A stretch of 64,000 nucleotides of DNA from a virus (lineage: Duplodnaviria > Caudoviricetes): the IMG/VR virus record IMGVR_UViG_3300005440_000008, positions 40,034-104,033 of that record. The stretch is one strand, 5' to 3'. Positions 14,080-60,250 of the stretch are shown piece after piece (the first letter of the stretch is position 1; each line of letters opens with the position of its first letter). The position numbers and the translations under genes were made by a program. Below the pieces are notes generated by a model that searched no databases, was not told the origin of the DNA, and saw only the letters and a program-made list of their open reading frames with translations.

Positions 14080-14598
14080 TCATCGACTCACCACCCACGT
14101 CTCCGCCCAGCGCAGGGCGAACGCTAAGTTGTGCTGCAGCACGTCCGGCCGATCCGGTGCCGCGACCGGCTGGTCCGCGAGGATCTCGTCTACGAATAGG
14201 TAGCCGATCGTCTCCGCCTCGCCGGCGTGGTCCTTCACGGCGATGCGCGTGCCGGGCATGAGCGGCGCGGCCGCCAGGTCCCGAATGGTCCAGAGGCGCA
14301 GATTGTTGGGCGGGCTCATCTTCGCGGGCCGGACGAAGCAGTTGACGTTCAGGAGCCAGAACATCTCGCCGCCGCGCGCGTCGGGATCCTGCTCCCCGCC
14401 GCGGCCGGCATACGGCCCGGCGAGCACGGCGGGCCGCACGGGCTCGAGGGCCCGGATCTGGAGCCACTCCGTAAGATCGCCGTCCTGGAACGGGATCCCG
14501 CCGCCGAAGTCGAGGCTGAACGCCGCAAGCTCGGCAGTAAGGTAGACCTGGAGCGAGCCCACCACGTTGGCCGTCTTCGCCGATTCGTGGAGCGGCAT
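14080..14598 (-). CDS. Tail terminator-like protein
   Basis: Start MPLHESAK (TGATG overlap); size and position upstream of the major tail protein. Confidence 0.55.
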   Translation of the reverse strand: MPLHESAKTANVVGSLQVYLTAELAAFSLDFGGGIPFQDGDLTEWLQIRALEPVRPAVLAGPYAGRGGEQDPDARGGEMFWLLNVNCFVRPAKMSPPNNLRLWTIRDLAAAPLMPGTRIAVKDHAGEAETIGYLFVDEILADQPVAAPDRPDVLQHNLAFALRWAETWVVSR

Positions 14599-14879
14599 CA
14601 GTTCGCGTCCTCGCGAACTTCCACGGTCACGTCGAGCTCGAGGATGTCGCCCTGCGCCGTGTTCACTCGGCACGAGACGAGGTAGTCCGTGCCGGCGGCG
14701 CCGCTGCTGATCTGGGCGCTCACCAGATTGCCCACGAGCGTCCCGGCGCTGATCGTGAGCCCGGTGGCGGCCGCCACGCTGGCGATTGTCGTCACGGAGT
14801 CGCCCGAGGCGAGTTTCTCCGTGAAGTCGAACGTGAGCGTCCGCTTCTCGGTCGGCTGCTTGCGCCGGGCTGGGATCAT
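14598..14879 (-). CDS. Small Ig-like fibre adaptor protein
   Basis: 93 aa, K.P.E...LTFDF...L..GD...SGAAGTDY.V.C.V.T..G pattern. Confidence 0.6.
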   Translation of the reverse strand: MIPARRKQPTEKRTLTFDFTEKLASGDSVTTIASVAAATGLTISAGTLVGNLVSAQISSGAAGTDYLVSCRVNTAQGDILELDVTVEVREDAN

Positions 14880-14882
14880 CGC

Positions 14883-15782
14883 TCATGGCCTCCGGTCGCC
14901 CGGCCACCGGCGTCCCGTCACCCGGAACCAGGTGGTGCCCATGACGCTTCGCCACGCTCGGCCGCGGATCCACTCGACGACGGGCGCCGGCAGAAGGGCG
15001 CCGGCTAGCTCGAGGCCGAGGGCGCCTGCGGAGCCGATCGTGCCGGCGAACCGGAGGAGCGCCACCCGGAGGAGCGTCCCCGCGGGCACCACTGTGCCGC
15101 TGAGCGCCTTGTGAACGACGCGCACGAGCGTCCCGGTCAGCACGATGGTCCCGGCCGCATTCACGACCCGCGTGGTCAAGGTCGTGAGCGCGCCCGCGAG
15201 GCTGACGGTGCCGGCCGGCCGGAGCTGGGGCACCTTGGCCACGCTGCCGCTCGAGGCGACCGTGCCGGCCATGGACCGGTTCACCTGGTTCGCGTCGCTG
15301 CCCGCCACGCCGACCGTGCCCCCGAGCCCCTTGTTCGCCTGCTTCACGAGCGTGCCCGTGGGCGCGATCGTGCCGCCGAAGAGCGTCGTGAGGAGGGTGC
15401 GGAGGCTGCCCGCGATCGCCACGCTGCCGCCGTGGAGGAGCTGCGGAACCCGCGTGAGGGCACCGGCCACCGGGACCGTGCCGGCGAGCGACGTGTTGAC
15501 CTGGCTCGACTCGGAGCCGCTCGAGGCGACCGTGCCGCTGAGGCCCTTGTTCACCTGTCGAATCAGCGCGCCACTCGGGGCGACGCTGCCGGCCTGGCTC
15601 AGGTTGGGACGACGGATCAGGGCGCCGGCGATCGCCACCACGCCGGCGTAGGTCGTCTGGGCCTGCTTGGTCAGGATGCCGGCCACCGTGATCGTGCCGC
15701 CGACGTCGAGCGTATAGACGGTCGCCCCGCCCAGCGCGGCGCCGGGGATGCCCATGACCGTCAGCCTGGTGATGTCCGCCAT
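14883..15782 (-). CDS. Fibre protein with 18-aa tandem repeats
   Basis: About 13-14 repeats such as VNKGLSGTVASSGSESSQ / VNTSLAGTVPVAGALTRV; Arg/Trp-rich C-terminus. Confidence 0.7.
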   Translation of the reverse strand: MADITRLTVMGIPGAALGGATVYTLDVGGTITVAGILTKQAQTTYAGVVAIAGALIRRPNLSQAGSVAPSGALIRQVNKGLSGTVASSGSESSQVNTSLAGTVPVAGALTRVPQLLHGGSVAIAGSLRTLLTTLFGGTIAPTGTLVKQANKGLGGTVGVAGSDANQVNRSMAGTVASSGSVAKVPQLRPAGTVSLAGALTTLTTRVVNAAGTIVLTGTLVRVVHKALSGTVVPAGTLLRVALLRFAGTIGSAGALGLELAGALLPAPVVEWIRGRAWRSVMGTTWFRVTGRRWPGDRRP

Positions 15783-15785
15783 GCG

Positions 15786-16391
15786 CTACACGATCACGAA
15801 GGTGTCCCCGTTCGACGGGGACTCGCCGGTCGGGGTCGCCGAGTAGGTGAGCCGCTTGCTGGACCCGAGATAGGCCGTGATCGACTGGGCGGAGTCCTTC
15901 AGGACCCCGGACGTCCAGAGGATCGCGCGTCCCTTGTAGTGGTCGTCGGTCGCCTCGGTCAGGTTCGTCGTCGCCTGGGTCGAGGAGAGTGTGCCGGTCA
16001 CGGCCGCGCCCTCCACGACGGTCCGGGCCGCGTTGGCGGGGACGCGGTTCTCGATCGAGAACTCCGCGACGACTTCGGCGACCGTCACGCCGTCCACCGT
16101 TTCATCCGGGTAGAGCACGACCTGGTAGTCGTGCCCGCTCGCGTAGAACCCGGCATCGGTGTTGTCCGCCAGGTCTATGGTCACGTGCGTGATGCCCGTC
16201 ATCGAATCGAAGGGCCCGGTGATCGTGAAGCCAGCCGTCGAAGACCGTTCGGTCGTGCCGTTGTCTTTGTAGACGCGCAGGTCAGCGGCTTCCCACGCAG
16301 ACGATTGATCGACGCGCCCGCCACCGAGCTTCCGCGTCGCGAACTTGAAATTGACCGCCGCGCCGACCCTGAAGTCTCCGCGATAGCTCAT
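15786..16391 (-). CDS. Putative virion structural protein
   Basis: 201 aa, beta-rich, ATGA coupled within the fibre module. Confidence 0.55.
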   Translation of the reverse strand: MSYRGDFRVGAAVNFKFATRKLGGGRVDQSSAWEAADLRVYKDNGTTERSSTAGFTITGPFDSMTGITHVTIDLADNTDAGFYASGHDYQVVLYPDETVDGVTVAEVVAEFSIENRVPANAARTVVEGAAVTGTLSSTQATTNLTEATDDHYKGRAILWTSGVLKDSAQSITAYLGSSKRLTYSATPTGESPSNGDTFVIV

Positions 16392-18511
16392 CCGACGAGG
16401 ACCCCCCCGCCGACGAGGCGCGTGGCGTCAGGCCGCGCCCACGTATAGTCACCCCCAGAGATCAACCGTTGCCGACCGCTCGGGCTGATCGCCAGGTCCA
16501 CCGGGTCCGCCCACAGCTCGGTGACGCTCGGAATGGCGACCGCGATGCGGACGCGGACGGGGCCGGGCTCTTGCGGCGTGAAGGTCACGCTGATCGTCTG
16601 GGGCGTCCCGGCGGTGTTGCCCGCTAGCTCCCAGGTGGCGGACGACGATGGCCAGTTGGCGGCCGTCCCTAGAAAACCGACGCGGCTGGTCGCCATCGCG
16701 GCGTTCGTCTGGCCAGCCGTGTTCTTGTACACAGCTTCCAACCAGATGTCGCTGTTTTTGAGCAACGTCGCGCTGTCGATGTAGACTTCTACGTTGACCG
16801 TGACGGGGCTCCCGACCTGATCTTGCTGGAAGACCATCCACGGGCAGTAGAGCGGCGTGGTCAAGCTGACACCCGCGCCGGACTGGATCAGCCACGAGGT
16901 CGGCGTCGTTCCGTCCGCCGACGCGCCCCCGGTTCGGTAGACGTTGGGGTCGAGGTCGCTGACGGTTCCTTCGTAGGAACGGCGGTACATGTTGTTCGCG
17001 CCGCCCAACCCCTGACAGTTGTCGAACCAGGCGACCACGCCGCCCGGGCCGCTCCCGCCGCCGAACAGCGTGACCGCCCCGTTGACGAGGCAGTCTTCAA
17101 ACTTGAACTCTCCCAAACCTGCCGCGTTCTGGAGGATGAATTTCCCTGACCCCCAGAGCGAAAGGTCCACCGCCCGGAAGAACGCGATGGTGGGGTTCGC
17201 GGCGGTGGCCTTCATCGCGCCGCCTGGCGTCGTGCTCGTGATGAAACTACCGCCCTCCATGATGAGGCGCAGCTGGCCGAGCGTGAGCGAGGCGTTCGCG
17301 TGACCCGGCAACCGTATCGTCGTGTCCTTGAGGAACAACTGGCAATCGTCCGAGGATGTGCCCGTGGGACCGAAGGCGATCACCGCGCCCGATCCTGTAG
17401 CCGGATTGCGGAGCGAACAGTTGTCGAAGTAGAGCGCCCAAGGCGTGGTCGCGGTGAGCGTCATCGCGTTTGAGCCCGACCCCGTGCTCGACGAGAAGAT
17501 GATGCCGTAGAAGTAGCAGGACCCAGACGTCCAGGTGATGCTGAACGCGCCCGTCGTCGTGACCGTCGCCGTGATCGCAAGGACGGTCGGCGTCGCGGGA
17601 TCGCCGGTGTCGTCCACGCAGATCACGCGGGTCAGGTTCCCCACCGTGCCGCTAGGAGCGAGGGCCATTCCGGACGCCTGCGTCTCGGCGTGGTTGTCCG
17701 AAACGTAAATCGTATCGCCCGCTGATTCGTCCGCGAACGCGCCGACCAGCGTGGCGTTCGCCAACGCCCAGGTGGTCCCGTTGTCCGCGTCGCTCCCGTC
17801 CCCGCTGCGGAGATACTGGACCGCGCCCATCAGCGGGACCGCGTCGGCGAGTGAGCTGAGCGCCATCTGGCCGAGCAGCGAGAGCGCGGCGAGCCCGGCG
17901 ACGCGACGAAGCTGCGCCTGCCTGCGCGCCGCGAAGCGGGCGCGAGCGTGCCCCGCGCTAAGGTAGTGGACCCCCGCAGGGGTTTTGCGAACGGCGGGGC
18001 TGACATAGGGAATGCCGAGCTTCATGCAGAGTTGCTGAGTCCGCTGCGCCCGCTCGATGAACGCGAAGCCTTCCGCGAGCGCCCAGGTGAGCGCCTGGAG
18101 CCGATCCCCGCCGCACGCCTGGTTCGCGACGGCCTGGAGCCGGTCGGGGACTTCCGGGAGGACGGTCAGCGACGCGCTGGAGTTCTGCCAGTACCACTGC
18201 GCGCCCTGGAGCTTCATCGGTGGGGCCGCTTCTCCGCGCGCCGCCTTGCCTTCGACTTCGCAGAGCCCTTCCGAGAGCGCCCATGCCCAAATGTTCGTCC
18301 GCTTGACGTTGGGCCGCTTGTGCCGCGCTTCCCCCTGCGCCCGCCACGCGACTTCTCCGGCGACGGCTCCCGCGAGGCGCTCGCTCAGTCGCTCGATCCG
18401 CGCGAGCGCGGGTCCGATGACGAGATGATGACCGAGCGTGGTTAGTTCCCACTTGATCTTGTGACGCTTGCGCCAATCCACGCGGTCGGAGTCGAGGCAG
18501 GACAGGTTCAC
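16388..18511 (-). CDS. Beta-helix-like spike/fibre protein with an unusual N-terminal extension
   Basis: From aa ~228, YLRSGDGSDADNGTTWALA..TL...AGDTIYV is a typical parallel beta-helix entry motif; start position uncertain (alternative ATG at 17830). Confidence 0.6.
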   Translation of the reverse strand: MNLSCLDSDRVDWRKRHKIKWELTTLGHHLVIGPALARIERLSERLAGAVAGEVAWRAQGEARHKRPNVKRTNIWAWALSEGLCEVEGKAARGEAAPPMKLQGAQWYWQNSSASLTVLPEVPDRLQAVANQACGGDRLQALTWALAEGFAFIERAQRTQQLCMKLGIPYVSPAVRKTPAGVHYLSAGHARARFAARRQAQLRRVAGLAALSLLGQMALSSLADAVPLMGAVQYLRSGDGSDADNGTTWALANATLVGAFADESAGDTIYVSDNHAETQASGMALAPSGTVGNLTRVICVDDTGDPATPTVLAITATVTTTGAFSITWTSGSCYFYGIIFSSSTGSGSNAMTLTATTPWALYFDNCSLRNPATGSGAVIAFGPTGTSSDDCQLFLKDTTIRLPGHANASLTLGQLRLIMEGGSFITSTTPGGAMKATAANPTIAFFRAVDLSLWGSGKFILQNAAGLGEFKFEDCLVNGAVTLFGGGSGPGGVVAWFDNCQGLGGANNMYRRSYEGTVSDLDPNVYRTGGASADGTTPTSWLIQSGAGVSLTTPLYCPWMVFQQDQVGSPVTVNVEVYIDSATLLKNSDIWLEAVYKNTAGQTNAAMATSRVGFLGTAANWPSSSATWELAGNTAGTPQTISVTFTPQEPGPVRVRIAVAIPSVTELWADPVDLAISPSGRQRLISGGDYTWARPDATRLVGGGVLVG

Positions 18512-18972: not shown

Positions 18973-20181
18973 TTACGCGTCCTGGAGCACCGTCTCGACT
19001 GAGTCCCAGGACGGGATGCCCGGCGGGGTCACGTCCGCCGACGAGCGCAGGGGACGGTAGGCGAACACGGCCCCCTGGACCCGATGCACGACGATCAGGA
19101 GGTCGTCCTGGATCGAGTAGCCGCCGCGGTTGTAGGTGCCGTTCCACCCCACTCCGGCAACCTCTGGCGAGTCCGGCGTCACGCCCTCCGTCGGCGCGAT
19201 GTCGGTGATGGCGAACGTGTCGGGGTTCATTGAGTAGAGCGTGCGGCCTCCGGAGGGGTGGATCCAGTACACCCCGCTTATCGGATCGCGGACCACGAGG
19301 GGCGCGTTCCCGAGCGAATATTGCGCGTTGTACGGCGCGGCGAGCGCCTGCACGCGCCGCTGGTACTTCCCGCTCGGGAGCGCGTCCCAGACGATGCAGT
19401 TGACCGAGGCCGAGAACGGGCCGAAGCCGACGACGCGATCCCGGACAGGATCGTGGAGCAGGCTCATGTAGATGTACTGGTTGCTGTTCTCCTGCCCGTC
19501 GTCGATGATCTTGGCCTTCTGACCGGGCGGCAGGCGGTGGTCGTAGCTCCGCAGCCGCCCGTTGCTGCAATAGATGACGCGATCGTGGAGCGTGTCGAGG
19601 CAGGCCGAGCATGCCGTGTGCGGAGTGGTCCCGCCCGGCCAACCCAGCATGAAGCTGTCGCCCGCCGCGCAAATGCCGGTGACCGCGTCGGTCTCCCACG
19701 AGAGCGCGCCGCAGCCCGAGCCGTCGTACCAACGCACCCCGCCGAACTGGATGATCTTGCCGGCGTGGTACACCTGGCCCTGGTAGTTGTGCCGGCTCGC
19801 GTAGATCAGGTTCCCCGGCGGCCCGTAGAGCCCGGTCGGGTCCGAGTAGTACGGCAAGCTCGGCTGGGTCGGGTTGTAGCGCGACGGGATCAGGTCCACC
19901 GACGGGCCGCGCAGCATCCGCCAGAGCCCGTCGGCGAGCGTGAACGAGTCGGACTCGTTACTGGCGCTGCTCCCGTGGCCACCGCAGGCCGCAAGGTAGA
20001 GCTTCCCCGCGACCGGGTCCATCGCGCCGCCGCACCAGTCGAAGACCTTCTCCGCCTGGTTGACCCCCTTGACGGCGGTGATCGTCTTGCCGGTGCCGGG
20101 CTGTCGCCAAAGGGTCGCGCCGACGCTTTGGCCCGGCTGCGAGACAACGCCCCACTGGCCTGCGGTGACCGGAAGGGTCAT
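18973..20181 (-). CDS. Kelch-like beta-propeller protein with conserved C-terminal DxxPPxxPxW strand
   Basis: LYLAACGGH, SRHNYQG, IIQFGG, YD/HDP blade motifs; ends ADVTPPGIPSWDSVETVLQDA. Confidence 0.7.
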   Translation of the reverse strand: MTLPVTAGQWGVVSQPGQSVGATLWRQPGTGKTITAVKGVNQAEKVFDWCGGAMDPVAGKLYLAACGGHGSSASNESDSFTLADGLWRMLRGPSVDLIPSRYNPTQPSLPYYSDPTGLYGPPGNLIYASRHNYQGQVYHAGKIIQFGGVRWYDGSGCGALSWETDAVTGICAAGDSFMLGWPGGTTPHTACSACLDTLHDRVIYCSNGRLRSYDHRLPPGQKAKIIDDGQENSNQYIYMSLLHDPVRDRVVGFGPFSASVNCIVWDALPSGKYQRRVQALAAPYNAQYSLGNAPLVVRDPISGVYWIHPSGGRTLYSMNPDTFAITDIAPTEGVTPDSPEVAGVGWNGTYNRGGYSIQDDLLIVVHRVQGAVFAYRPLRSSADVTPPGIPSWDSVETVLQDA

Positions 20182-20183
20182 CG

Positions 20184-20507
20184 CTAGTTGTCCTGGAAGA
20201 CCCCGACGATGGAATCCCACTGCGGCATATCCGGCGGGATCAGGTCCACCGACGGGACGGTGACATCGCGCTCGGCCGGGAGACTCGCGTTGCCGGCCGC
20301 GTCGACCGCGACCAGCCCGAGCCGGACCACGTAGGCGGCCTCGGTCGTCGGGAGCGGATCGTAGGTGAAGCTCGCCTTGCCGTCCGCACCCTTGGGCCGC
20401 TCGCCCTTGAGGTCGCCGTCGAGGAGAAAACGGAAGAGGGCCGTGTCGGTGTCGGCCGCGCCGAGCGCCGCGAGAGCGTTAGCGGTAATGACAAAGACCT
20501 TGGCCAT
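20184..20507 (-). CDS. Single Fn3-like domain, apparently circularly permuted
   Basis: Fn3 hallmark LVAVDAAGNAS; ends VDLIPPDMPQWDSIVGVFQDN. Confidence 0.7.
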   Translation of the reverse strand: MAKVFVITANALAALGAADTDTALFRFLLDGDLKGERPKGADGKASFTYDPLPTTEAAYVVRLGLVAVDAAGNASLPAERDVTVPSVDLIPPDMPQWDSIVGVFQDN

Positions 20508-20510
20508 TGA

Positions 20511-22889
20511 TTAGCCCTCCAGGTGGGCCTCCACCAACTCCCAGGTCGGAGCCAACGGAGGCGTGGTGTCGGCCGGTGGTGTGGTGGTCAGCGGGACGAC
20601 GCGCGTATTCCAGCGGATGTAATAGATGATCGCGGCGCACTCGGCATCGGTGAGATTGCGCGGGTAGCCGCTGCCCGCGCCCGCGCGAAGGAAGGCCGCG
20701 AGATCGCCGTCACGCAACTCGGCCAGGTCATCGAAGTTGGGGAGACCGAGGTGTCCCTGCCCGTCCTCGCCGTGGGTCAAGGCAAAGGCCGGGTACGGGT
20801 CGGCGGCTCGCCCTTGCCACAGACCCTTCCCGGTCTGATACAGGCTCTTGTTCACGGCCGGATCTGTCGGGAGCCGGCGCGTCTGCACCCAGAGCCCCTG
20901 CATCGTGCCGGTGCCGACGATATACACGCGGCCCATCCCTGACGCGACCATCGTCGGGTAGTGGCAGCTCGTGAGGTTCCGGTTACTCCCTTCGACCAGG
21001 AATCGGTCTAGGCTGCTGGTGTTCGGGAAGAAGCTCCCGAGCCAGGCCGTCATGTCCTTTGAGTAGATCCGCGCCGAGTCCTGTGTCCACTGGGTGGTGC
21101 GGATGCAGTCTTTCGGCCCGCACGTGCCGTCCCAGTTGATGTCGATGCAGATGTCCCGCGTGTTGAAGCCGGTGGCGAACGTCGGGAGCTTGCCGAGGAA
21201 GCGGCCGGTCTGGGTGCGGAAATCCCACTTGAACAGGCCGTCCAGGTAGCGGCAGGAAAAGATCAGGTTGCCCTCGGAGTCAAAGCGGACGCTCTGGGGG
21301 AAGGCGAAGCCGAACGTGCCCCGGCCGCCGTCGCGCCGGAACCGGGTGAGCAGGGCGTCCTGGGAGAAGGACGACCGGCCCATGCCGCGCCCGTTCACCC
21401 GGACATCGGGATGTTCGAGGGTGATCGAGGCGTCGGCCGTCGCGGACTGAATCCGGTCCATCACCACGCCCGTCTTCGCGTCGATCAGCAGGATCGCGTG
21501 GTGCATGAAGAGCGGGAGCCACATCTCGTCGGTGTTCCAGATGCGGCAGGGATCCCAGGGCTCCGACCCGTGGTCGAGCGGCGTGAACATCGTGATCTCG
21601 GGCGGGCGCCCCGGGGCCTCGTGGCACGGCCGGTGGTTCGCCTTCTGGATGCAGTAGCCGAGGGTGTTGCTGATGAGGTGTTCCTCGTGATGCACGTCGG
21701 CGGCCGGCGTCGGGTAGGGGCCGAACGGGACCGCACCCCACGGCTCGATCAGCTTCGGCCGGAAGTCCCCCACGGTCTGCATCTGGCCCTCGCGCACAGG
21801 CCCCCAGGTGTCCGGCCCCGGGAAGTAGCCGGTCGTCCGCGACGAGGTGGGATGCGCGGTGAAATCATCCTCGGCCCGCAGGCGACGACCGGCGACCGTC
21901 GAGAGCCGCCCATCGAAGCGGTGGGCGAACGCGAGGCGCCCGTTCGTGCAGGTGATGAAACAACCGCCCGCCCTGGCCGGGTTCTCGTGCCGCGCGACCC
22001 AGCCCGACCAGCCGTGCCCGAGTTGGCCGCTTCCGCGAGGGCCGTCCACGAGCGGCACCCCGTCGAGCGGGCTCAGGACTGACGGGTCGGGCGGGATGAC
22101 GTTGCTGTGCACCCCCTGGAAGTAGTCGTACTGCTCCTTCCCGGTGATGACGATGCGCGGGGTGCCCGGGCGCTTCTTGCTCTCGATGACGCCGATCCGG
22201 CGCGCCATCGCCTTGGTGGACACGCTGCCAAGGCGGGTGTAGTGGAAGAAGTCCTTGGCCGCCTCCGTCGTGTAGAACGGAATCGTCGTGTACGGCTGCG
22301 CGGTGGGGCGCAGCTCGTCCGGTCCGGGGCGGAACGGCACCACCACCCGGCGGTTGATGGGCTCGCCCGGGTGCCAGATCATCGCCGGCATCTGGCCATT
22401 GACGACGTACCAGATCCCGTCCCACTTCGTCGGTCCGGCCCAGCACCAGCCCGCCTGGGTGAGCGGCAACGGCTCGCCCGTCGTGAACTTGCAGGTCGCC
22501 GCCCAGAAGTTGTCGGTCAGAGGGCCGCCCGTGAAGCGGGCCCAGAGGACGTGCTGAAGGGTCGGGCCCGTGCGCGGGAGTACCTGGCGATCAGTCACGC
22601 ACCAGCGGTCAGCGGTGCGGGGGGTCATCTGGGCCACGGCGAGGGCGTCGAGGTCGATCTGGAAGCGGTAGGGCGGCGCCAGGATCGGCGAGCCGAGCGG
22701 CTGGTCGTCGAGGAAGAACTGGACGGTCGGCCAGGGGCTCATCGTGACGGCCGCCCCGCTCTCGGTCAACCACTGGAACTCGAACGAGAACAAGCCCGAC
22801 AGGTCGTGGACGTGCTCCCCCCGGTAGTAGCGGGAGCCGAGCGTATTGTCGCCCTCGGCGGGAGTCTTGACGACGAGGTAGTGACGCAT
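20511..22889 (-). CDS. Ig-like plus NHL-type beta-propeller protein with conserved C-terminal strand
   Basis: VQFFLDDQPLG..PPYRF (Ig-like); DGPRG, LIEPWG, FAFPQSVRFDSEGNL (NHL-like); ends ADTTPPLAPTWELVEAHLEG. Confidence 0.65.
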   Translation of the reverse strand: MRHYLVVKTPAEGDNTLGSRYYRGEHVHDLSGLFSFEFQWLTESGAAVTMSPWPTVQFFLDDQPLGSPILAPPYRFQIDLDALAVAQMTPRTADRWCVTDRQVLPRTGPTLQHVLWARFTGGPLTDNFWAATCKFTTGEPLPLTQAGWCWAGPTKWDGIWYVVNGQMPAMIWHPGEPINRRVVVPFRPGPDELRPTAQPYTTIPFYTTEAAKDFFHYTRLGSVSTKAMARRIGVIESKKRPGTPRIVITGKEQYDYFQGVHSNVIPPDPSVLSPLDGVPLVDGPRGSGQLGHGWSGWVARHENPARAGGCFITCTNGRLAFAHRFDGRLSTVAGRRLRAEDDFTAHPTSSRTTGYFPGPDTWGPVREGQMQTVGDFRPKLIEPWGAVPFGPYPTPAADVHHEEHLISNTLGYCIQKANHRPCHEAPGRPPEITMFTPLDHGSEPWDPCRIWNTDEMWLPLFMHHAILLIDAKTGVVMDRIQSATADASITLEHPDVRVNGRGMGRSSFSQDALLTRFRRDGGRGTFGFAFPQSVRFDSEGNLIFSCRYLDGLFKWDFRTQTGRFLGKLPTFATGFNTRDICIDINWDGTCGPKDCIRTTQWTQDSARIYSKDMTAWLGSFFPNTSSLDRFLVEGSNRNLTSCHYPTMVASGMGRVYIVGTGTMQGLWVQTRRLPTDPAVNKSLYQTGKGLWQGRAADPYPAFALTHGEDGQGHLGLPNFDDLAELRDGDLAAFLRAGAGSGYPRNLTDAECAAIIYYIRWNTRVVPLTTTPPADTTPPLAPTWELVEAHLEG

Positions 22890-26969: not shown

Positions 26970-27233
26970 CTAGGGCACAGCGACCGGTTCGGCGAGCGCC
27001 GGGGCGGGGACCACCAGCCCCTCGGCGGCCGCGATCGTGGCCGTCCGGAGCTCCGCCGCGCGGATCCAGTCCTGGAAGCGCTCGTACTTGATGCCGAGGA
27101 GCTCGGCGGCCTGCCGGTGGTTCCCCTGGGCCGCCCGGAGCGCGGTCATGACGTACAGGTTCTTGAGCGCCGCGAGCTCGGCCTCGACGTTCACGGGCAC
27201 GCGGATGCGGAGGGCGCCGACGAGCTCGGACAT
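26970..27233 (-). CDS. Fis-type HTH protein
   Basis: ALRAAQGNHRQAAELLGI motif. Confidence 0.8.
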   Translation of the reverse strand: MSELVGALRIRVPVNVEAELAALKNLYVMTALRAAQGNHRQAAELLGIKYERFQDWIRAAELRTATIAAAEGLVVPAPALAEPVAVP

Positions 27234-27919
27234 CAGCGGGCGCCCTCGGTCAGGGTGACCAGCTCGGCCGACTCGGATCCCGGCATCTCGATCGGGATCC
27301 GGACGTCGACGGCGGCCAGGTACTGCATGTAGAAGCGCCCGTCGAGCCCGGGCCAGAGCGTCGAGCCGACGACCTTGTGGCCGACGCGGACATCGCAGTC
27401 GAGCGCCGGCGCGTACCCGGCGGCCGCGGCGCGGAAGCAGAAGTCGAAGTCCTCCTGGAGCGCGTCCATCTCGATCTGGCCGCAGCGGAACCAGGGCGGC
27501 GTGAGCGCCTCCCAGACGCACCGGCGGACGAGGAGGCAGCCGGTGCCGACGGCGGGCACGTCGAGGAGCCCCGTGCGCGGCAGATCGGCCAGGAGCCAGC
27601 GCGCCGGGTGCGGCTCGAGGCTCCGGACCGCCGAGGTGCGGAAGGGCGGGAAGCGCTCGAGCACGACGGCGGACACGAGGGGCAATTCGCGCGCGAGGAG
27701 CCGCGGGAGCATGGTCGTCGTCGGAATGCAGTCCGAGTCGAGGAACAGGACCCAGTCCCCGATGGCCGCCGCGAGCCCGAGGTTCCGCTGCCGCGGGATC
27801 TGATTGCCCTGGACGTCCTGGAGCTTCACCGTGCGCGGCAGCGTGCGCGTCCAGTGGAGCAGCTCGGTCGCGACCGTCCCCTGGTGGAGGATGACGACGG
27901 TGCCGCGCTCGTCGGTCAC
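27233..27919 (-). CDS. Glycosyltransferase family 2
   Basis: RN...GDWVLFLDSD, VGTGCLLVRR, EDFDFC, VGH. Confidence 0.9.
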   Translation of the reverse strand: MTDERGTVVILHQGTVATELLHWTRTLPRTVKLQDVQGNQIPRQRNLGLAAAIGDWVLFLDSDCIPTTTMLPRLLARELPLVSAVVLERFPPFRTSAVRSLEPHPARWLLADLPRTGLLDVPAVGTGCLLVRRCVWEALTPPWFRCGQIEMDALQEDFDFCFRAAAAGYAPALDCDVRVGHKVVGSTLWPGLDGRFYMQYLAAVDVRIPIEMPGSESAELVTLTEGAR

Positions 27920-28314: not shown

Positions 28315-28688
28315 GGCTCGGTGTCCTGGTAGACGCTGCGATCGACGCCCGCCTCGTCGACCACGTGGTCGAGGACGGACTCGAGCTCCCACGGCGTCGC
28401 GAGGACGCGCGCCTCGAGCTTGTCGGCGAGGTCGGTCAGGTTCTTGGCGACGCCCCGGCGGTCGAGGCTGAAGCCGTTGACCTGGTAGTAGATGGCGAAC
28501 TTGGCCTGGCTGATCGCGATCGCGCGCAGCGCCTGCGCGGCTGCCAGGTGGAGGTCGCCCGGCCAGGCGTCGAGGAAGAGCTGGAGCTCCTCGTCCTCGA
28601 ACACGTACTGGGCGGCGTTGGTGTCCGAGATGAACAGCCGGAGCCGATCGCGATCGGTCGGGCTCGCCGGCGTGTAGGTGAACGTCAC
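28311..28688 (-). CDS. Head-tail adaptor protein
   Basis: TFTY...DRLRLFISDT....FEDEELQLFL motif. Confidence 0.75.
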   Translation of the reverse strand: MTFTYTPASPTDRDRLRLFISDTNAAQYVFEDEELQLFLDAWPGDLHLAAAQALRAIAISQAKFAIYYQVNGFSLDRRGVAKNLTDLADKLEARVLATPWELESVLDHVVDEAGVDRSVYQDTEP

Positions 28689-29368
28689 GCGGCCGCTCCC
28701 GTGAGGCGCGCTATCGCGGCGATGCCGGCCAGGCTGTCACGGTAGGGCACGCGGCCGCCCTGCCGGTCCTCCCACTGAGCGAGGAGCGTCCCCGTCTGGC
28801 CCGGCCACAGGAGCACGCTCGCCTCGTGGCCGACCCGCACCGCCGTGTCGAGGTGCGCCGGGAAGCCGACCGCGGCCGCCCGGAGGCAGAAGTCGAGGTC
28901 CTCGCCAAGGAGATCGGGCGCGCCCGGGAGCTGTCCGCAGCGGAACCAGGGAGCCGGCAGCACCTCGAAGACCCGGCGCCGCACGAGAAGGCACCCGGTC
29001 CCGATCGCGGGCACCGGCAGCGTGCTCCCGTCGTCGGGCAGCTCCTCGAGGGCGAGGCGGGCGAACGGCTCGAGCGACTTCACCGCGCACACCTCGAAGG
29101 GCGCGCGCCGCTCGACGACGACACCGCCCACGAGCGGCAAGCCACGATCGAGGAGCGTCGGGAGCGCCGGCGCCGGCGGCACGCAGTCGGCGTCGACGTA
29201 GAGGATCCAGTCGCCGACCATGCGCCGTGCGCACTCGTTCCGCGCCCAGGCGATCTGGTTGGTCCGGAGCCGGAGGATGGTGACCTCGGCGGGTTGCGCG
29301 GCGAGCCACGCGTCGAGCTCGTCGCAGGCGGGGCCCCGCCCGGTCAGGACTGCGATCGTGCCGTGCAT
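28685..29368 (-). CDS. Glycosyltransferase family 2 (paralog of 27233..27919)
   Basis: ARN..GDWILYVDAD, IGTGCLLVRR, GEDLDFC, VGH. Confidence 0.9.
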   Translation of the reverse strand: MHGTIAVLTGRGPACDELDAWLAAQPAEVTILRLRTNQIAWARNECARRMVGDWILYVDADCVPPAPALPTLLDRGLPLVGGVVVERRAPFEVCAVKSLEPFARLALEELPDDGSTLPVPAIGTGCLLVRRRVFEVLPAPWFRCGQLPGAPDLLGEDLDFCLRAAAVGFPAHLDTAVRVGHEASVLLWPGQTGTLLAQWEDRQGGRVPYRDSLAGIAAIARLTGAAA

Positions 29369-35542: not shown

Positions 35543-35863
35543 CTACTGGTTCTCGGGCGCGCCCGCGCTGATGGCCAGCGCGACGGCCTCGCTCGGGTCG
35601 ACCTGGAGATCGAGCGCGCCAGAGATCGAGCGCACGCCCTCGCCGAGGTCCGCGTCGGCGGTCACGTTGATCTGGCACGCGCCGGGGACGAGCGCGACGA
35701 CGGTCGCGGACAGCCCGTCCTCGGCGACCTCGAGCGTGGCCACGGCGGGATCGGAGGCGGCCCACTGGGGCACCCCGTCCACCCGGGCCGGCCGGCCCTT
35801 CACGTCGACCGGCTGAATCGCGAGCGCGCACTTCTGTGTGTCCTGCAGGATGAGCTTGGCCAT
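35543..35863 (-). CDS. Ig-like (Big_2-like) domain protein
   Basis: PQWAASDPAVATL...ALVPG..QINVTA; CAGGAGG SD before ATG 35863; in-frame extension to 36010 is possible. Confidence 0.7.
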   Translation of the reverse strand: MAKLILQDTQKCALAIQPVDVKGRPARVDGVPQWAASDPAVATLEVAEDGLSATVVALVPGACQINVTADADLGEGVRSISGALDLQVDPSEAVALAISAGAPENQ

Positions 35864-40989: not shown

Positions 40990-41529
40990 TCACGCCTTCA
41001 CCCGCTCCGACCGCAGGCGCGTCACGGTGCCGCTCCACAGCTCTTCGAGCTGCTCCCCCGGGACGCCGACGCTCCGGGCCAGGTCCTTGAAGGTCGCCTC
41101 GTCACCGGCGCGCGCGAGATCGAGCAGCACGGGCACGTGCTCACCCGCGAGGCGCGACTCCGGCTCATCGGGGGGAAAGTCCCGCATCGACACGCTATCC
41201 GCACCCGCCCGGAGCTGGATCGGCTGAGCCAACTCGACCAGCGCGAAGGTCGGGTACAGGCGCTCGGCGTGCGGCAGGACCGTGCCCTCGGCCGGGGCCA
41301 GGATACGGCCGAGCCCGGACGTGATCCAGATGCGGCCGCGCGCCGTGACGAACCGGGGCAACGGCCGCGCCAGGGACGCATCCGGGAAGATCTCACAGAC
41401 CCCGACCAGCTCGAGGACCGCGCCAACGCGGACGCGCGGCCGGGGCCGGTAGCGGGCCCAGGCTTGCCGCGCCAACACGCCCACGATGAGGCCCACGAGG
41501 AGCGCGAACCTCCGGGCGCGCCGCCTCAT
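40990..41529 (-). CDS. Hypothetical protein with N-terminal TM/signal segment
   Basis: MRRRARRFALLVGLIVGVLA; ATGA overlap. Confidence 0.5.
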   Translation of the reverse strand: MRRRARRFALLVGLIVGVLARQAWARYRPRPRVRVGAVLELVGVCEIFPDASLARPLPRFVTARGRIWITSGLGRILAPAEGTVLPHAERLYPTFALVELAQPIQLRAGADSVSMRDFPPDEPESRLAGEHVPVLLDLARAGDEATFKDLARSVGVPGEQLEELWSGTVTRLRSERVKA

Positions 41530-42683
41530 GAATTCTCCCGCTCGATCGCGTAGAGCCGGCGCAGGTTGCGGTCGATCGAGTCGCCGGTGTGCACGCCTCC
41601 GCGACGCTCCACCTCGTCGCGCAAGGGGAAGCGATCCGGCACGGTCGCGTTCGACTCCAGGTACGTCCGCCGCGGCCGCAGCTGGTCGACGAGCCGCCAC
41701 AGCGATGCCTCCCCGCCCGCGAGGTGCTTGGTCATCGACAGCACGAGCAGATGGTCGATGCGGTCCGCGCAGACCGCGGCCAGCCACGCGGCCAGCTCCG
41801 GAAGGTCGGGGCCGTCCACGGCCGCCTGGCGATAGCACGCGTTGATCCCCGCCTGCCGGGCCAGCCGGCGGGCCAGTTTCACGAAGTCGGCGTCGTGGTC
41901 GATCCCGATCAAGCGCCCGAGGTTCGGCCCCTGCCGGAGCGCGGCGTACGTGAGGAACCCGCCGAGCTGCGACCCGATGTCCACCACCGACTCCCCGGCG
42001 ATCGGGAGGAACCTGAGCGCCATCGCCCGCTCGCGCACGCGACGCTCGCCGGGCACCCATCCCTGGTGGATCCAGACGTCCTGGTACGGCACGTTGCGCG
42101 CGTGCGGCGGGAACTGACCGTCGGTCAGGAGATCCGTCTCGAGCGCGTCATCGACCGGAATCGGCGGGACACGCTCGGCCGGCCCGGACCAGCGGAGGCG
42201 GTCCCAGCCCGAGCGGCGCACGTCGATCAATCGGCCGCCGATGATGTTCCCGGGCTTGTGGAGGTCGTTCCACGCGCCCGGCGTGCCCGTGACGGCTCCG
42301 CTCGCGCGGAGCGCCTCCGGCGTGAAGGTCCCCGGCTCGAGCGTCGTGGCGTCCGCCATCTCGTAGCCGAAGGCGCCACACGGATCCGCCCACCACCCGC
42401 CCGGGTGCTCGGAGATCACCGTCTGGACGTACACCCAGTCCCCGATCGGCGGCGCCCACGATCGCGCCGCGAGCCAGCGCAGGAGCGCGACCTCCTCGCC
42501 GATCAGCGACCGCGGGTAAAGTCCATCGCCCGGCATCCGGTACTTCTGGAGCATCCCCCCGAACTGAAAGGGAATCTTGCAGCCCAAGGCGCCCGGCTCG
42601 CGGGGCGGAATCCACACGCTGTGCTGCCCGACCACCACGCCCGGCTTCGTGAGATCCAGCTCGTCGATGATGTGCACGGTCAC
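41526..42683 (-). CDS. Kinase-like domain fused to class I SAM methyltransferase
   Basis: CKIP, EEVALL, DLHKPGN, LID (kinase/APH-like); VVDIGSQLGGF, GIDHD (MTase). Confidence 0.7.
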   Translation of the reverse strand: MTVHIIDELDLTKPGVVVGQHSVWIPPREPGALGCKIPFQFGGMLQKYRMPGDGLYPRSLIGEEVALLRWLAARSWAPPIGDWVYVQTVISEHPGGWWADPCGAFGYEMADATTLEPGTFTPEALRASGAVTGTPGAWNDLHKPGNIIGGRLIDVRRSGWDRLRWSGPAERVPPIPVDDALETDLLTDGQFPPHARNVPYQDVWIHQGWVPGERRVRERAMALRFLPIAGESVVDIGSQLGGFLTYAALRQGPNLGRLIGIDHDADFVKLARRLARQAGINACYRQAAVDGPDLPELAAWLAAVCADRIDHLLVLSMTKHLAGGEASLWRLVDQLRPRRTYLESNATVPDRFPLRDEVERRGGVHTGDSIDRNLRRLYAIERENS

Positions 42684-43303
42684 TCCCTGCACGGTTCGGT
42701 GTGGTGGGGGCTGCCAACCTTGGTGCGCGTCAGCTGGAGCGGCGCGTGGTAGAGGCTCGTCTCCACGCGGATGATCGTGAGCCCGAAGGCGTAGGGCAGC
42801 GTCACCCGGCTCGTCTCCACGCCGAACTCGGCGGCGGCCTCGAGGGCGGCGCGGATCCCAGCGCGAACCCCGGGCCCGCTGTAGGAGTGCGCGCTGTCGT
42901 GGACGAGGACCAGCCCAAGCGGGCGGACGCGCGGCAGGACCCACGCGAGGTCGGCCGCCACCGTCTCGGCGTCATGCGACCCGTCGTGGAGCACCAGCTC
43001 GAGCGGCGGGATCCGTCGGTGCTCGTCGACGTGAGCTCGCGCCGCCTCCGAGGTGACCGGGAAGTGCGTGTGGCGCGGATGCGTCGTCTCCCATGGCTTG
43101 GGCGCACACGAGAAGAGGTGCCCCTGCGTCTCCTCGAGGGCGAGCAGGATGGTCTCGGTCGAGCGCCCGACGCCGAACTCGAACACCGCCTGCGCCTCGA
43201 GGCCGCGGACGGCGCTGTAGAGGAAGAGGTAGTGCGGCCCGAGCCCGCTCGTGAACGCCTCGAGCTCCTGGCCCAGCATGATCGCGACCGCGGTGGCCCT
43301 CAT
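42680..43303 (-). CDS. SAM methyltransferase (Methyltransf_24-like)
   Basis: VFEFGVGRST, LHDGSH, LVHD. Confidence 0.8.
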   Translation of the reverse strand: MRATAVAIMLGQELEAFTSGLGPHYLFLYSAVRGLEAQAVFEFGVGRSTETILLALEETQGHLFSCAPKPWETTHPRHTHFPVTSEAARAHVDEHRRIPPLELVLHDGSHDAETVAADLAWVLPRVRPLGLVLVHDSAHSYSGPGVRAGIRAALEAAAEFGVETSRVTLPYAFGLTIIRVETSLYHAPLQLTRTKVGSPHHTEPCRE

Positions 43304-43941
43304 GTGGGGAGCTCCTCGATCCGCCGCTTGCAGCCGGTGCACCGCTTCTCGGGCGCGAGGCTCCGCTCCCGACACGTGCGGCCATCGTGATCGGTCTCCT
43401 CGCAGGAAAAGGTCAGGGCGAGAACCGCTTGGTGAGCGGGCGGGGCCGCGAGCCACAGCGTGCGCTTGCTCTTGTCCAGCAAGGGCATCGGGAAGCCCCG
43501 GAAGAAGGTCTCGACGGCGGCAGGCCGCGTCGGGTGGATCAGCCGTTCCCAGACCTCGTCGTACATGACCACGCAGCACTCGATGAGGTCGATAGTCCCG
43601 GTGACCTCCCGGCAGAAGCGGAGCGCGGCGTACTGGTGACTCAACTGGAGCGCGTCACATAGCTCGACGCAGACGCGCCAGAGGGGGGCCCCGCCGAATC
43701 CGCTCTGGAGCTGCTCGAGGTCCCACACCCGATCCGGACGGAGGGCGCCGGCCGACAGGGCGGCCCGGATCCGGGCGCGCGCCGCCGTCTCCCGCTGGCT
43801 CTTCTCCCAGCCCGTGGAGTGGGCCATGTAGATCGGCTGCACCTCACGACCGTCCCGCAGGTGTTCCAGGATCCGCGCCGTCGAATCGAATCCGCCGGTC
43901 CACAGGACCGACACGGGGATCGTCGCGCTGTCGGCCGTCAT
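43300..43941 (-). CDS. QueC-like PP-loop ATPase
   Basis: WTGGFDST, PLLDKSK, TFSC...C...RCTGCKRR zinc motif. Confidence 0.75.
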   Translation of the reverse strand: MTADSATIPVSVLWTGGFDSTARILEHLRDGREVQPIYMAHSTGWEKSQRETAARARIRAALSAGALRPDRVWDLEQLQSGFGGAPLWRVCVELCDALQLSHQYAALRFCREVTGTIDLIECCVVMYDEVWERLIHPTRPAAVETFFRGFPMPLLDKSKRTLWLAAPPAHQAVLALTFSCEETDHDGRTCRERSLAPEKRCTGCKRRIEELPT

Positions 43942-44855
43942 GGCGCCAACCCCACGGCCTGCAGCGCCTGGCGGACGCGCGCCACGCTCGAGTGCTCGGC
44001 TTGCACGTACTGAAAGGCGCGCGCTCGGATGCCGGGCCCCTCGAGCGTCGCCTGGCGCAGCGCCGCGCGAAGATCTCCCTCCTCGGGCCGACGCGGTAAC
44101 AGCACGTAGTGGACGCCCGGCTCGAGGAAGCCCTGGACGTCGTCGTGGAGGAGCACGCCGCCAGCGCCCGGCAGGAGGAAGACGCGCACGTCCGTCCAGC
44201 CCGGCGCGTCGGGTCGACCGAATCCGAGCATCGCGGACGCGGATGCCGCCAGCTCCGGGGTGCGAAAGAGCGTATGCGCACACGCGGCATTCGGGAACAG
44301 CTTGAACCGGTCGCCGAGCCACGCCTGGCAGCGGCCGAGCAGCTCCGTCCGCTCAGCGTAGATCCCCGCGCCAAGCCGCCCGGCGAAGGCGAGGTCGCAC
44401 GTGAACTCGGGGACGGCGGGCGCCCGCTCGCTCTGAGCGAAGGCGAAGTACGGCCAGCGCACCTGCCGGATCCCCCATGCCGAACGGTCGGCGGTGTGGT
44501 TGCAGAGCGCCAGATCGACCGCGGCCGAGATGTCGTGGGGCCAGCGGGTCTCCAGACGAGCGTCGCCATCGTGGAGGAAGACCACCGCGCCGCGGCGGCG
44601 CCATCGCTCGCAGAGCTCGAGTAACGCGAGCGTGTGGGACGGCCCCCCAGGGGACCAGAGCATCATGTGCATCCAGAGGACCTGGGGCTGGATCACCTCG
44701 CACATCCGGTCGATGACGTCGATCGGCTGACGCACGTCGAGGTCCCGGTGAAAATGTCCTAGCAACGTCATCGCCTGCGCTGCGCCAAAGCAAAACTCGC
44801 TGGGATAATTCGAGATGTCGCCGATAAGGACCGAGCGGAGCGGCCGGCGCATCAC
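43938..44855 (-). CDS. GT-B glycosyltransferase (CgeB / Glyco_trans_1_2-like)
   Basis: DLAFAG...ER, VRVF..PGAGG.LL, EHS...RV. Confidence 0.8.
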   Translation of the reverse strand: MMRRPLRSVLIGDISNYPSEFCFGAAQAMTLLGHFHRDLDVRQPIDVIDRMCEVIQPQVLWMHMMLWSPGGPSHTLALLELCERWRRRGAVVFLHDGDARLETRWPHDISAAVDLALCNHTADRSAWGIRQVRWPYFAFAQSERAPAVPEFTCDLAFAGRLGAGIYAERTELLGRCQAWLGDRFKLFPNAACAHTLFRTPELAASASAMLGFGRPDAPGWTDVRVFLLPGAGGVLLHDDVQGFLEPGVHYVLLPRRPEEGDLRAALRQATLEGPGIRARAFQYVQAEHSSVARVRQALQAVGLAP

Positions 44856-45109
44856 GGCGCGATCCTCCGCGGGATGATCAGCCCGTACGTCCCGCTGCCG
44901 GGCAGGCGCGCGAACGGGAGCCCGTCCCGCCGGTCCTTGTGCCGCTTGTTCCCGTGGTGCAGCGCCACGACTCGCTTTCGCTTGTCGCGGTCGCGCCCGT
45001 GGCGGCGGTCCGCGACCACCACGACGTCCTCGCAGCCGGCGAACAGGGACCGGAGCCGCTCCTGGAGAGCTTGATTGAACCGGGGCACGACGACCAAGAT
45101 CTCCGTCAT
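44852..45109 (-). CDS. Small basic hypothetical protein with V.VV.DRR motif
   Basis: MTEILVVVPRF...LFAGCEDVVVVADRRHG...DRR; ATGA overlaps. Confidence 0.55.
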   Translation of the reverse strand: MTEILVVVPRFNQALQERLRSLFAGCEDVVVVADRRHGRDRDKRKRVVALHHGNKRHKDRRDGLPFARLPGSGTYGLIIPRRIAP

Positions 45110-45948
45110 GCGACTCCGCCCGAGAGGAACCGGGCCCGGGCCCGATGCCACCGCGCGAAGGCGGCCGCGCAGGCCTCGGGAGTGCGCTCGTCTCCGTGCT
45201 CGGCCCCGTACGGGCGCGTGCCCAGGAGGAGCGGCAGGCAGCCTTTCAGGTGGAGGATCCCGACCGTCGCGAGGTCCGGCGGACAGCGGTCCTGGTTCCA
45301 GACGTCAGCCGCCAGCCGGTGCGTGCGGATCCCGCCCGCCTCCTGGATCACGGCCAGGCGCTCGACGAGGCCGGCCTGGTCCGGGGCGCCGTAGGCATCG
45401 ATCGCCTGCTTCGTGCGCTCGGGCGTGGTCAGCCAGCGCTCCGTCGCGCGCGCCCAGTCGGCCAGCTCACGGATCGCGCGCGGGCTCGTCTCGAGGAAGA
45501 GGACGCCCGTGTTCAGCGGCCAGCGGCCGGCGCGATGCGTGTAGCCGAGCTGAAAGCCGCCGGGCACGCCCGCCCAGGCCTCCGCGGGGGGCCGGAGCAC
45601 GAGCGTGTCCGCATCGAGGCAGACGACGCGGAGCCCGGGCGCAAGCGGCGCCACGGCCTCGGTCCAGACCCATACCTTCCGGGCCACCCGCCGCGCGCGA
45701 TCCGGCTCTCCCTCGAGGAGCGCGCGCACGGACTCGCCGACGATCGGGGCCCAGACGACGTCCGGGCCCGCCGCCGCCTGCCAGGTTTCGAGGCGCGGCG
45801 CTGGCACCTCGGCGTGGAGCACGTGCACCGCGGCCAGCGCGGTCGGCTGGGCTTCGCGGAGCTCGAGGAGGCTTCCGAGCAGCGCCTCGAGGTACGGGCC
45901 GTGCTGGTCGCCATAGATTGCCGTGACGATGTGGATCCGATCGCTCAT
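45106..45948 (-). CDS. GT-A glycosyltransferase (GT8/GT77-like)
   Basis: LDADTLV, NTGV, DQ, WN, ILHLKG. Confidence 0.8.
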   Translation of the reverse strand: MSDRIHIVTAIYGDQHGPYLEALLGSLLELREAQPTALAAVHVLHAEVPAPRLETWQAAAGPDVVWAPIVGESVRALLEGEPDRARRVARKVWVWTEAVAPLAPGLRVVCLDADTLVLRPPAEAWAGVPGGFQLGYTHRAGRWPLNTGVLFLETSPRAIRELADWARATERWLTTPERTKQAIDAYGAPDQAGLVERLAVIQEAGGIRTHRLAADVWNQDRCPPDLATVGILHLKGCLPLLLGTRPYGAEHGDERTPEACAAAFARWHRARARFLSGGVA

Positions 45949-46676
45949 GTCGTCCTTTCTCGCTGTGCGCCCTGCCAGTCGAAGCGGTCGCGCTCCAGGT
46001 AGACGCCGCGCACCCAGTACGTCCCGGTCAGCTCCGGCGGGAGCACCGGCGACGTGAATTGGGCGGGCCAGCGCTGCTGCCAGCCCTGACCATCGAGATC
46101 GTTCGGCTCGACGCCGACGGCACCCGGACGGCCGACGTCGAGCGTGGCCACGAACCAGCCGCCCGGCACGACGACGCGCGCGAGCTCTCGGAGCCACGGC
46201 ACCACCTCGAGGGCCAGGTTCTCGAGGACCGAGATGCAGAAGACGCCGTCGAACGTCGCGTCCTTGAACGGCAGCACGGGTCCGCGGAGGTCGGCCTGGA
46301 CGAGCGCGAACCGGCCGCCGGGATTGGGCCACCGGCCATCGCCGTAGGAGCGCAGCGACGGCGGCCCGGCGACCACGTTCCCGACGTCGACGCCCACCAC
46401 CTGGCAGCCGCGCTGCGCGAGGACCACGGGCAACGGCGAGCCGCCGCACCCGAGATCGAGCACGCGCTGGCCGGCCCGGACGCCCGACGCCAGCAGCGCC
46501 CAGGGGTACTCCCACTCGCGCGACCAGTGCATCCGCACGGAGCCAGGATCCCGGGCGCCGGCTGGGTGCGCGCGGCCGCCGTTCTGCCGGTACGCCGCGA
46601 AGATCTGGTCGGCCAGGATCTGACAGTCCACCCGCTGCCAGTCGGCCGGCCAGCACCAGCGGCTCTCAGCGCGCAT
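45945..46676 (-). CDS. Class I SAM methyltransferase (Methyltransf_11-like)
   Basis: SREWEYPW, VLDLGCGGS, LPFKDATFD..FCISVLE, PGG. Confidence 0.9.
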   Translation of the reverse strand: MRAESRWCWPADWQRVDCQILADQIFAAYRQNGGRAHPAGARDPGSVRMHWSREWEYPWALLASGVRAGQRVLDLGCGGSPLPVVLAQRGCQVVGVDVGNVVAGPPSLRSYGDGRWPNPGGRFALVQADLRGPVLPFKDATFDGVFCISVLENLALEVVPWLRELARVVVPGGWFVATLDVGRPGAVGVEPNDLDGQGWQQRWPAQFTSPVLPPELTGTYWVRGVYLERDRFDWQGAQRERTT

Positions 46677-47415
46677 CGGTGGCCGTCCGGCCCAGGAGGA
46701 AGAGGAGCGTCGGCCCGTAGCTCGGCATCGCCTCGTGCCGGCCGTCGGGAAAGACGCGGGTGTACGGCAGCTTGCCGGCGCCGCGCTGGTCGAGCCAGGC
46801 GGCATGGTGCCCCGTGTCGAGCGTGGCCATCACCGCCTGATGCACCGGCCTGTCTGTGTCCCAGGTGCGAAAGCGCTGCTCGGCCTCCACGCGCGCCGGC
46901 GCCCCCTGGTACATGTCGTGGACGGCCACGAACGCGACCGCGCCCGTCTCGAACGCGACATCGGCCAGCGCGAGCGCCGCATGATCCTTGGGCCCGTCGA
47001 GCAGCAGGGCGCACGAGGCAGACGGACGGTTAGCGAGGAGGATCGGGACGGCGTGCTCGGCCGAGGCCTGGAGCAGGAGCCCGTGAGCCGATTGGACTCG
47101 CACGCGGGTGGCCTCGCTCAGGGCATGATCGAGGCTCACCACCGTGGTGCCCGGCGTCTCGGCGGCCCAGCGGTAGAGGCACGCCGTCGACTGCCCCTGA
47201 TGGATGCCGCTCTCGATCACGGTGCGCACCGCGAACACGTCCAGCCAGGTCACGAGGGCGGCGAGCTCCGAGTACCAGATCCCGCGCGGCCGCGGCGCCA
47301 GGTCGCCTCCCGGCTCGGCGATCCAGGCCTCCAGGCGCGCCCGGGCCCGGCGCAGATGCGCGACGATCACGCGCGGATCGAGCGGGTCCGCGATGCGCAC
47401 GCCGTTGCCGCTCAT
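46666..47415 (-). CDS. SAM methyltransferase-like protein
   Basis: VIESGIHQGQST, LLDGPK, VHD. Confidence 0.7.
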   Translation of the reverse strand: MSGNGVRIADPLDPRVIVAHLRRARARLEAWIAEPGGDLAPRPRGIWYSELAALVTWLDVFAVRTVIESGIHQGQSTACLYRWAAETPGTTVVSLDHALSEATRVRVQSAHGLLLQASAEHAVPILLANRPSASCALLLDGPKDHAALALADVAFETGAVAFVAVHDMYQGAPARVEAEQRFRTWDTDRPVHQAVMATLDTGHHAAWLDQRGAGKLPYTRVFPDGRHEAMPSYGPTLLFLLGRTATDAR

Positions 47416-57496: not shown

Positions 57497-58017
57497 CGGG
57501 TCCTCGCTTCGACGGTCGCGCGTGGTGTCCGGGCCACCGCGAGCCAGTCGCGCAGGTGAAAGCCTGGACGGCGCGAGACGTAGCGCAGCGCCGCGCAGGG
57601 GTCGCGGGGCCACAGCCAGGCCTCGACCCACTCCGCCAGCGTCGACGCGTCGACTTCTCCCTCCATCCGGCGGAGACAGGACTCGATGAACGCCGACACG
57701 TCGCCGAACGCCCGGGAGTGCTTGGAGAGGACGGCAACGATCGAGGCCTCGAGCCGGACCTGGTCGAACGCCTCCAATGCCCCCCCCCCAGCCCTCGGAT
57801 GACGCACCGTCTGGCGGACCTCGATCGCCTCGTACGTCGTGACGCGGCGGTGGCACTGCACGCATTCCCGACGGCGGCGGACCTCCCCGGCGCTGGCGAC
57901 GACGCGCGAGTCCACGACAAAGAGGCCCACGTGGCCGCAGAAGGGGCACGGGAGCTGACAGGCCTCGCGGCTGACCGGCCCGCGCTGGGGCTTCGGCTCC
58001 AGGGCGGTTGCGCTCAT
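57493..58017 (-). CDS. NrdR-like regulator (zinc ribbon plus degenerate ATP-cone)
   Basis: CPFCG...VVDSR...VRRRRECVQC..RVTTYE; EAFD..RL; AALRY.S. Confidence 0.85.
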   Translation of the reverse strand: MSATALEPKPQRGPVSREACQLPCPFCGHVGLFVVDSRVVASAGEVRRRRECVQCHRRVTTYEAIEVRQTVRHPRAGGGALEAFDQVRLEASIVAVLSKHSRAFGDVSAFIESCLRRMEGEVDASTLAEWVEAWLWPRDPCAALRYVSRRPGFHLRDWLAVARTPRATVEARTR

Positions 58018-59571: not shown

Positions 59572-59574
59572 GCC

Positions 59575-60240: not shown

Positions 60241-60250
60241 GGTGATCTCC

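Follow-up and report, generated by a model that had tools for sequence, protein, structure and literature searches.

Strands that one protein donates to complete the fold of another are found both in pili and in phage appendages. In the chaperone-usher protein Caf1, the immunoglobulin (Ig)-like subunit is polymeric through circular permutation of a terminal strand that is unable to reach its own cleft (PMC10628683). The neck appendage of phages Bas63, Sf14, and GP4 (collar, rope, and whiskers) contains incomplete sandwiches completed by the strand of another protein (PMC12609058), and in mycobacteriophage Bxb1 the wing base gp30 is reported to bind the tail spike and to be dispensable (PMC12646305). 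Here we analyze three adjacent genes, A, B, and C, on the minus strand (18973..22889) of a 64,000-nucleotide (nt) stretch of virus record IMGVR_UViG_3300005440_000008 (Caudoviricetes), hereafter the window; the record is a complete phage genome of 104,033 nt with terminal repeats present, and the window is part of it. Sequence and structure models support reading B as a circularly permuted fibronectin type III (Fn3) domain, and the common C-terminal tails of A, B, and C as its missing strand A. A donor-strand module is probably the best explanation of the locus overall.

The best sequence match of the B profile in the PDB was to tail spike gp29/wing base gp30 of Bxb1 (9D93, E 4e-7). In a close relative of Bxb1, the spike ends in the same DxTPP motif with the first two Fn3 strands, A and B, and the gene after it begins at strand C; Bxb1 gp29 and gp30 probably form one Fn3 split across two proteins. 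The equivalents of gp29 and gp30 in phage Switzer (NC_041985, L010:2643-5967), whose genes overlap by 8 nt, are divided with A/B at the C-terminus of the spike and C-G on the wing base, and this split is present in many cluster A1 phages. As in Bxb1, a C-terminal donor on one gene stands before a truncated Fn3 that opens the next, here as A then B in eight loci. Unlike our locus, Bxb1 is split after strand B in a one-to-one arrangement, two strands are given by a core virion protein, and the acceptor is fused to an enzyme. No stand-alone subunit of Bxb1 combines a groove with a donor, so there is no chain, whereas here one strand is carried on mobile accessory genes.

The other systems are more distant in design. 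In chaperone-usher pili it is strand G that has moved, to the N-terminus, whereas here Fn3 strand A has moved to the C-terminus; the present system is also phage-encoded, has no chaperone or usher, and travels as a mobile unit of three genes, and none of A, B, and C has a clear signal peptide by hydropathy (signal peptides were judged throughout from hydropathy and by eye only). Type V pili (Mfa1/FimA) share with it a C-terminal donor strand and a donor-only subunit that closes one end (PMC13655056), but they use lipoprotein export, a protease trigger, and a double transthyretin-like fold, and their donor-only subunit is the anchor. In Bas63, Sf14, and GP4, a single rope threads whisker dimers of another fold with no self-chaining. 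Tandem bacterial Fn3/Big repeats have the same motifs and the same order and spacing of strand G and the next strand A; they are one polypeptide, whereas here a break after strand A divides the repeat among separate genes.

Gene B and the strand at three C-termini

Gene B (20184..20507, minus strand) encodes 107 amino acids (aa), has its own ribosome-binding site, and is the sole acceptor in the cassette. Its predicted strands run B-C-C'-E-F-G and then A, with the donor strand in the last 20 residues (20184..20246). It is a single Fn3 without cysteine or lipobox, and its strand F/G motif lies 41 residues from the end of the protein. The corresponding strand forms the last 19 residues of A (20511..20570) and the last 20 of C (18973..19035); the C tail is nearest to that of B (50% identity, 67% at the DNA level). 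In a six-frame scan of the entire 104-kb genome, the pattern D..PP..PxW occurred only at the C-termini of A, B, and C, 19-20 residues before the stop, and a tail profile found no fourth copy in the genome (next match E 0.39). The three tails are exactly as quoted in the original prediction, which had been made from the window sequence. Pfam and PHROG gave no match for A, B, or C; at the curated cut-off of Pfam fn3, B had no match, and matches in its relatives were weak.

The original prediction also held that B has an Fn3 body with the first strand at its C-terminus, and structure modeling agreed. An artificial join of the last 30 residues of A to B, obtained by reading through the A stop codon, was modeled with AlphaFold. 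The model has seven strands, with the A tail as the first, while B's own tail is left unfolded when the A tail occupies the groove. Residues 11-117 superimposed on 3gdb with Z 10.9 and a root-mean-square deviation (rmsd) of 2.3 over 94 aligned residues, and on 1k85 with Z 10.3 and rmsd 2.3 (86 of 88 aligned); this likeness to solved Fn3 domains speaks to fold, not to binding. The complete seven-stranded ABE/C'CFG sandwich was reached only with the A tail placed before B, which by itself begins at strand B. A complex prediction with three B copies reached 0.36 where the mark is 0.42 (0.34, 0.40, and 0.36 in the single runs; controls 0.00-0.01), and speaks neither for nor against a B-B complex.

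The position of the tail bears on whether B could complete itself. The F/G motif and the tail are separated by 9-12 residues in B genes and by 9-16 in 75 natural tandem repeats, so the B tail should have no slack to fold back. The N- and C-termini of an Fn3 domain lie at opposite poles, and the tail is thus placed to start a next domain rather than to return to its own. By sequence geometry and model, B therefore appears to combine an open groove with a terminal strand unable to fill that groove in cis.

The two other genes carry propellers in front of the donor strand. Gene A (20511..22889, minus strand; 792 aa) has a predicted N-terminal Ig-like sandwich (residues ~1-136), a beta-propeller (~290-650), a helical domain, and a Pro/Thr linker before the tail; the sandwich and helical domain had not been mentioned previously. 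Gene C (18973..20181, minus strand; 402 aa) consists of a propeller (residues 1-380) and the tail. The original prediction named these propellers NHL-like and Kelch-like, respectively. The Kelch-like assignment of C stands (Atlas score 0.95, features 0.90-0.95; template modeling score 0.69-0.75, with 0.69 to Kelch clusters). The NHL label for A is tentative; it is based on the repeat pattern, matches at Z ~11, and weak SGL matches in two of seven relatives, there is no NHL match in Pfam, and many propeller types tie at Z 11-13 on a low-confidence AlphaFold model (predicted local distance difference test 34).

Relatives, transfer, and tail co-variation

Relatives of A span 28-94% identity, including 46% in L002, L004, and L008 and 28% in L006, L058, and L108, the last three detected via B alone. 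These six are all tail-ended, and each is directly followed by a gene of 94-100 aa that begins at strand B and, in the complete copies, finishes with strand A. A tailed A then a B-type gene is found in eight loci in total (the window and seven others). Co-occurrence had been suggested as a check and was borne out: wherever a tailed A relative has DNA context, a B-type gene comes next, and the lone tail-less relative, P0010 (L005), which ends with the helical domain, has no B nearby. P0010 groups with the tailed proteins of L058 and L108, though on a long branch. It and the preceding 99-aa coiled-coil gene (L005:1735-4523) have similar short opening motifs (Y, G-x-V-x-V-x-EGD, prolines), possibly an N-terminal docking tag of another kind. 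C was found solely here and in L001. Nothing was found when viral contigs were scanned with single proteins, or viral and genome contigs with an A profile, and a profile search of protein representatives returned mostly tandem repeats and one true B.

The whole cassette is mobile. L001 carries A-B-C in one 3,916-nt match at 86.8% DNA identity that extends from the A start codon to a few bases before the C stop, and the neighboring genes of L001 appear podovirus-like. By this sequence comparison, A-B-C is a unit transferred exactly between unrelated phages. The genes are intact and under purifying selection, and silent changes exceed replacements in A, B, and C alike (158 silent compared to 45 replacement codons in A). 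Gaps between A and B are 2, 3, 3, 5, 9, and 21 nt. Obligatory read-through from A into B was rejected because the A/B frames differ between loci, as was an alternative genetic code because the stops differ (TAA in the window, TAG in L001).

Stand-alone permuted Fn3 genes extend beyond the relatives of A. DNA motif scans identified at least 31 distinct genes in phage or phage-like contigs with GC contents of 28-69%, a tally from three non-saturating scans; none was found in bacterial genomes among the motif matches listed. Chance was rejected as the source of the motif pattern by the six-frame scan and a permutation test. Permutation tests left out L001 and L058 as close relatives, and their probabilities are indicative given that the loci are partly related. 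When partner and B tails of five independent A loci were permuted, pairing within the locus ranked first among 120 permutations. In all of the five but the window, the A tail resembles its own B tail more closely than it does the other A tails. The window C tail matches its own B tail strongly (40, compared to ≤6 for unrelated loci).

Flanking genes were compared in an unbiased test, with the last 22 residues of both neighbors scored against own and other B tails. For 20 B genes without a signal peptide, the score was 27.3 for own B and 16.1 for other B (0/100,000 permutations). For seven signal-bearing B genes it was 11.4 and 11.2, and there was no tagged neighbor. Signal-bearing permuted Fn3 genes were seen in L254, L266, L272, L289, L310, L311, L318, L320, and L340, and some adjoin lysis genes; without tagged partners, they are candidates for secreted self-polymers. 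The partners in a short-tail subfamily bear signal peptides and contain Fn3 or InlB-B domains; they are located upstream or downstream of B. At L041:684-1301 (-) and L020:1951-2517 (+), the partner frame runs ~45 codons past the donor motif and overlaps the B start, which may be an extension, a frameshift, or an assembly error.

Tail co-variation within loci suggests that domains unrelated to one another carry tags matched to the B of their locus, and most simply all of these tags would fit a single groove, that of B. Because partners lie upstream or downstream of B with gaps in and out of frame, fusion in cis cannot explain the tail matching.

Genome setting and neighboring genes

The cassette is located inside the virion operon of a genome with GC of ~70% in the window. 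The late operon, on the minus strand, contains terminase, portal, capsid (PF25209), and head completion genes, membrane and lysis-like genes, and then A, B, and C. After C follow several fibre-like genes, including a GP4 gp77-like collar adaptor (PF23148) 4 kb away from the cassette, tail genes, and a 1,990-aa tape-measure-like gene. A search for promoters and terminators gave no matches. The gp77-like adaptor lies in a region (14598-18511, minus strand) that also encodes a 299-aa repeat protein and proteins of 201 and 707 aa, a possible GP4-type collar/rope/fibre module; by eye, L005:4655-5986 looks like the second half of the 707-aa protein.

Two other features of the window were noted by eye. 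A 106-aa protein encoded between the portal and head-morphogenesis genes (35543-35863, minus strand) resembles a Big_2 Ig domain with its first strand at the C-terminus; it had no Pfam, PHROG, or cultured-phage match and is possibly a second, unrelated permuted Ig. Glycosyltransferase-like or sugar-modification-like genes are present at 27233-27919, 28685-29368, 41526-47415, and 58014-62654 (minus strand), two of them inside the head module. Their abundance may reflect glycosylation of virion or DNA.

Proposed assembly and alternative explanations

We propose a phage-borne donor-strand module that would need no chaperone. B would provide an Fn3 body with a groove open at the strand A site and strand A at the opposite pole; out of reach of its own groove, this strand would fill the groove of the next B. 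The outcome would be a head-to-tail chain resembling a tandem Fn3 array made of separate subunits. A and C, which have the donor only, would plug the open groove at the chain start, nucleating or capping the chain and competing for one site, to give head-B-B-...-B with a free strand at the far end. Most likely the product would be a late-expressed accessory appendage, with a propeller head on an Fn3 stalk for surface binding. Sequences and models back the permutation, the ability of the A tail to complete the fold, the co-occurrence, the tail co-variation, and transfer as a unit. Docking of the donor strand in trans is very likely, and chains of more than three subunits are reasonably likely. 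Attachment to the virion is somewhat doubtful, and a virion fibre with the propellers as distal adhesins is unlikely.

Several observations weigh against this assembly. In the window, the A tail matches its own B most poorly (score 10.5, rank 8/11), and L001 shares no virion gene with the source phage (comparison over 20 of 28.6 kb of L001). Nine signal-bearing permuted Fn3 genes lack a tagged partner, and a stable six-stranded domain would fit them too. In the short-tail subfamily only the partner, not B, bears a signal peptide, and contact between the two would therefore have to wait for lysis. The module was not found in any cultured phage, proteome, or structure. A and C, being donor-only, would cap the end with the open groove, which leaves the opposite end in need of an acceptor; profiles from 5 and 31 B bodies found none in the complete genome, where a divergent anchor could escape them. 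The precedents, type V pili and the Bxb1 spike/wing base, place the donor-only partner at the base rather than the tip. The original prediction is partly supported: of its interchangeable tip adhesins, the data support A and C as interchangeable end pieces, and tip placement is one of several geometries.

The missing acceptor bears first on whether chains form at all. B could instead be a closed strand-swapped dimer, a small ring, or a tail-protected monomer, with A and C displacing the B tail to form small A-B and C-B complexes as an adaptor or stabilizer. Such a closed B requires no terminal acceptor, and secreted permuted Fn3 proteins exist without a partner. However, the B linker is not longer than in linear tandem repeats, and the opposite poles of the Fn3 termini disfavor closure. 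These closed forms are quite unlikely, and in Caf1 the same design gives polymers (PMC10628683). A related question, which concerns location and overlaps with the donor-strand module as proposed, is whether chains form with A or C as the base, or assemble off the virion, being released at lysis or remaining on the host envelope. C-terminal donor strands are present on the base and stalk pilins of type V pili and absent from the tips (PMC13655056), and Bxb1-like phages have donor strands on the tail spike. The A-B pair is beside or within lysis genes in the window, L001, L002, and L008, and the short-tail partners are signal-bearing. Assembly off the virion is opposed by the place of the window cassette in a virion operon near the collar adaptor and by the lack of clear signal peptides on A, B, and C; the tail-less P0010 also sits amid fibre-like genes. 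A base or off-virion location is a serious possibility, if somewhat less probable than not.

Two further explanations would remove the B groove from its role in trans. The three tails might all bind a shared third protein of virion or host, in keeping with the weak resemblance of the window A tail to the B tail. This is very unlikely, given that the tail is precisely the strand that B is missing, that its presence or absence tracks that of B, and that no further gene is common to the loci. A split-gene relic, or stop read-through yielding an A-B fusion with an ordinary Fn3 in cis, would suit the window, L001, L006, and L008, where A and B are in frame, but not L002 and L004, where they are out of frame. 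The ribosome-binding site of B, the position of C and several partners downstream of B, and the intact genes under purifying selection also oppose it, and we consider it extremely improbable.

The module is real, conserved, and probably undescribed; the literature searched, mostly outside subscription journals, contained no description of a self-chaining permuted Fn3 with tagged unrelated partners. Tentatively, it could represent a widespread mobile, chaperone-free phage "mini-pilus": a self-polymerizing permuted Fn3 of 100 residues and a 20-residue tag that plugs unrelated domains (propellers, secreted Fn3/InlB-B) onto the end of the chain, with locus-specific matching of tag and groove, on virions or assembled at lysis. 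It would account for a large, so far unnamed family of phage proteins of 100 residues, and tag/groove pairs that have diverged in nature could act as orthogonal protein connectors. If the donor-strand reading is true, donor-strand assembly, as seen in bacterial and archaeal pili, extends to phage-encoded Fn3 subunits with swappable heads, and phages gain a way of swapping accessory binding modules through the addition of a 20-residue tag.

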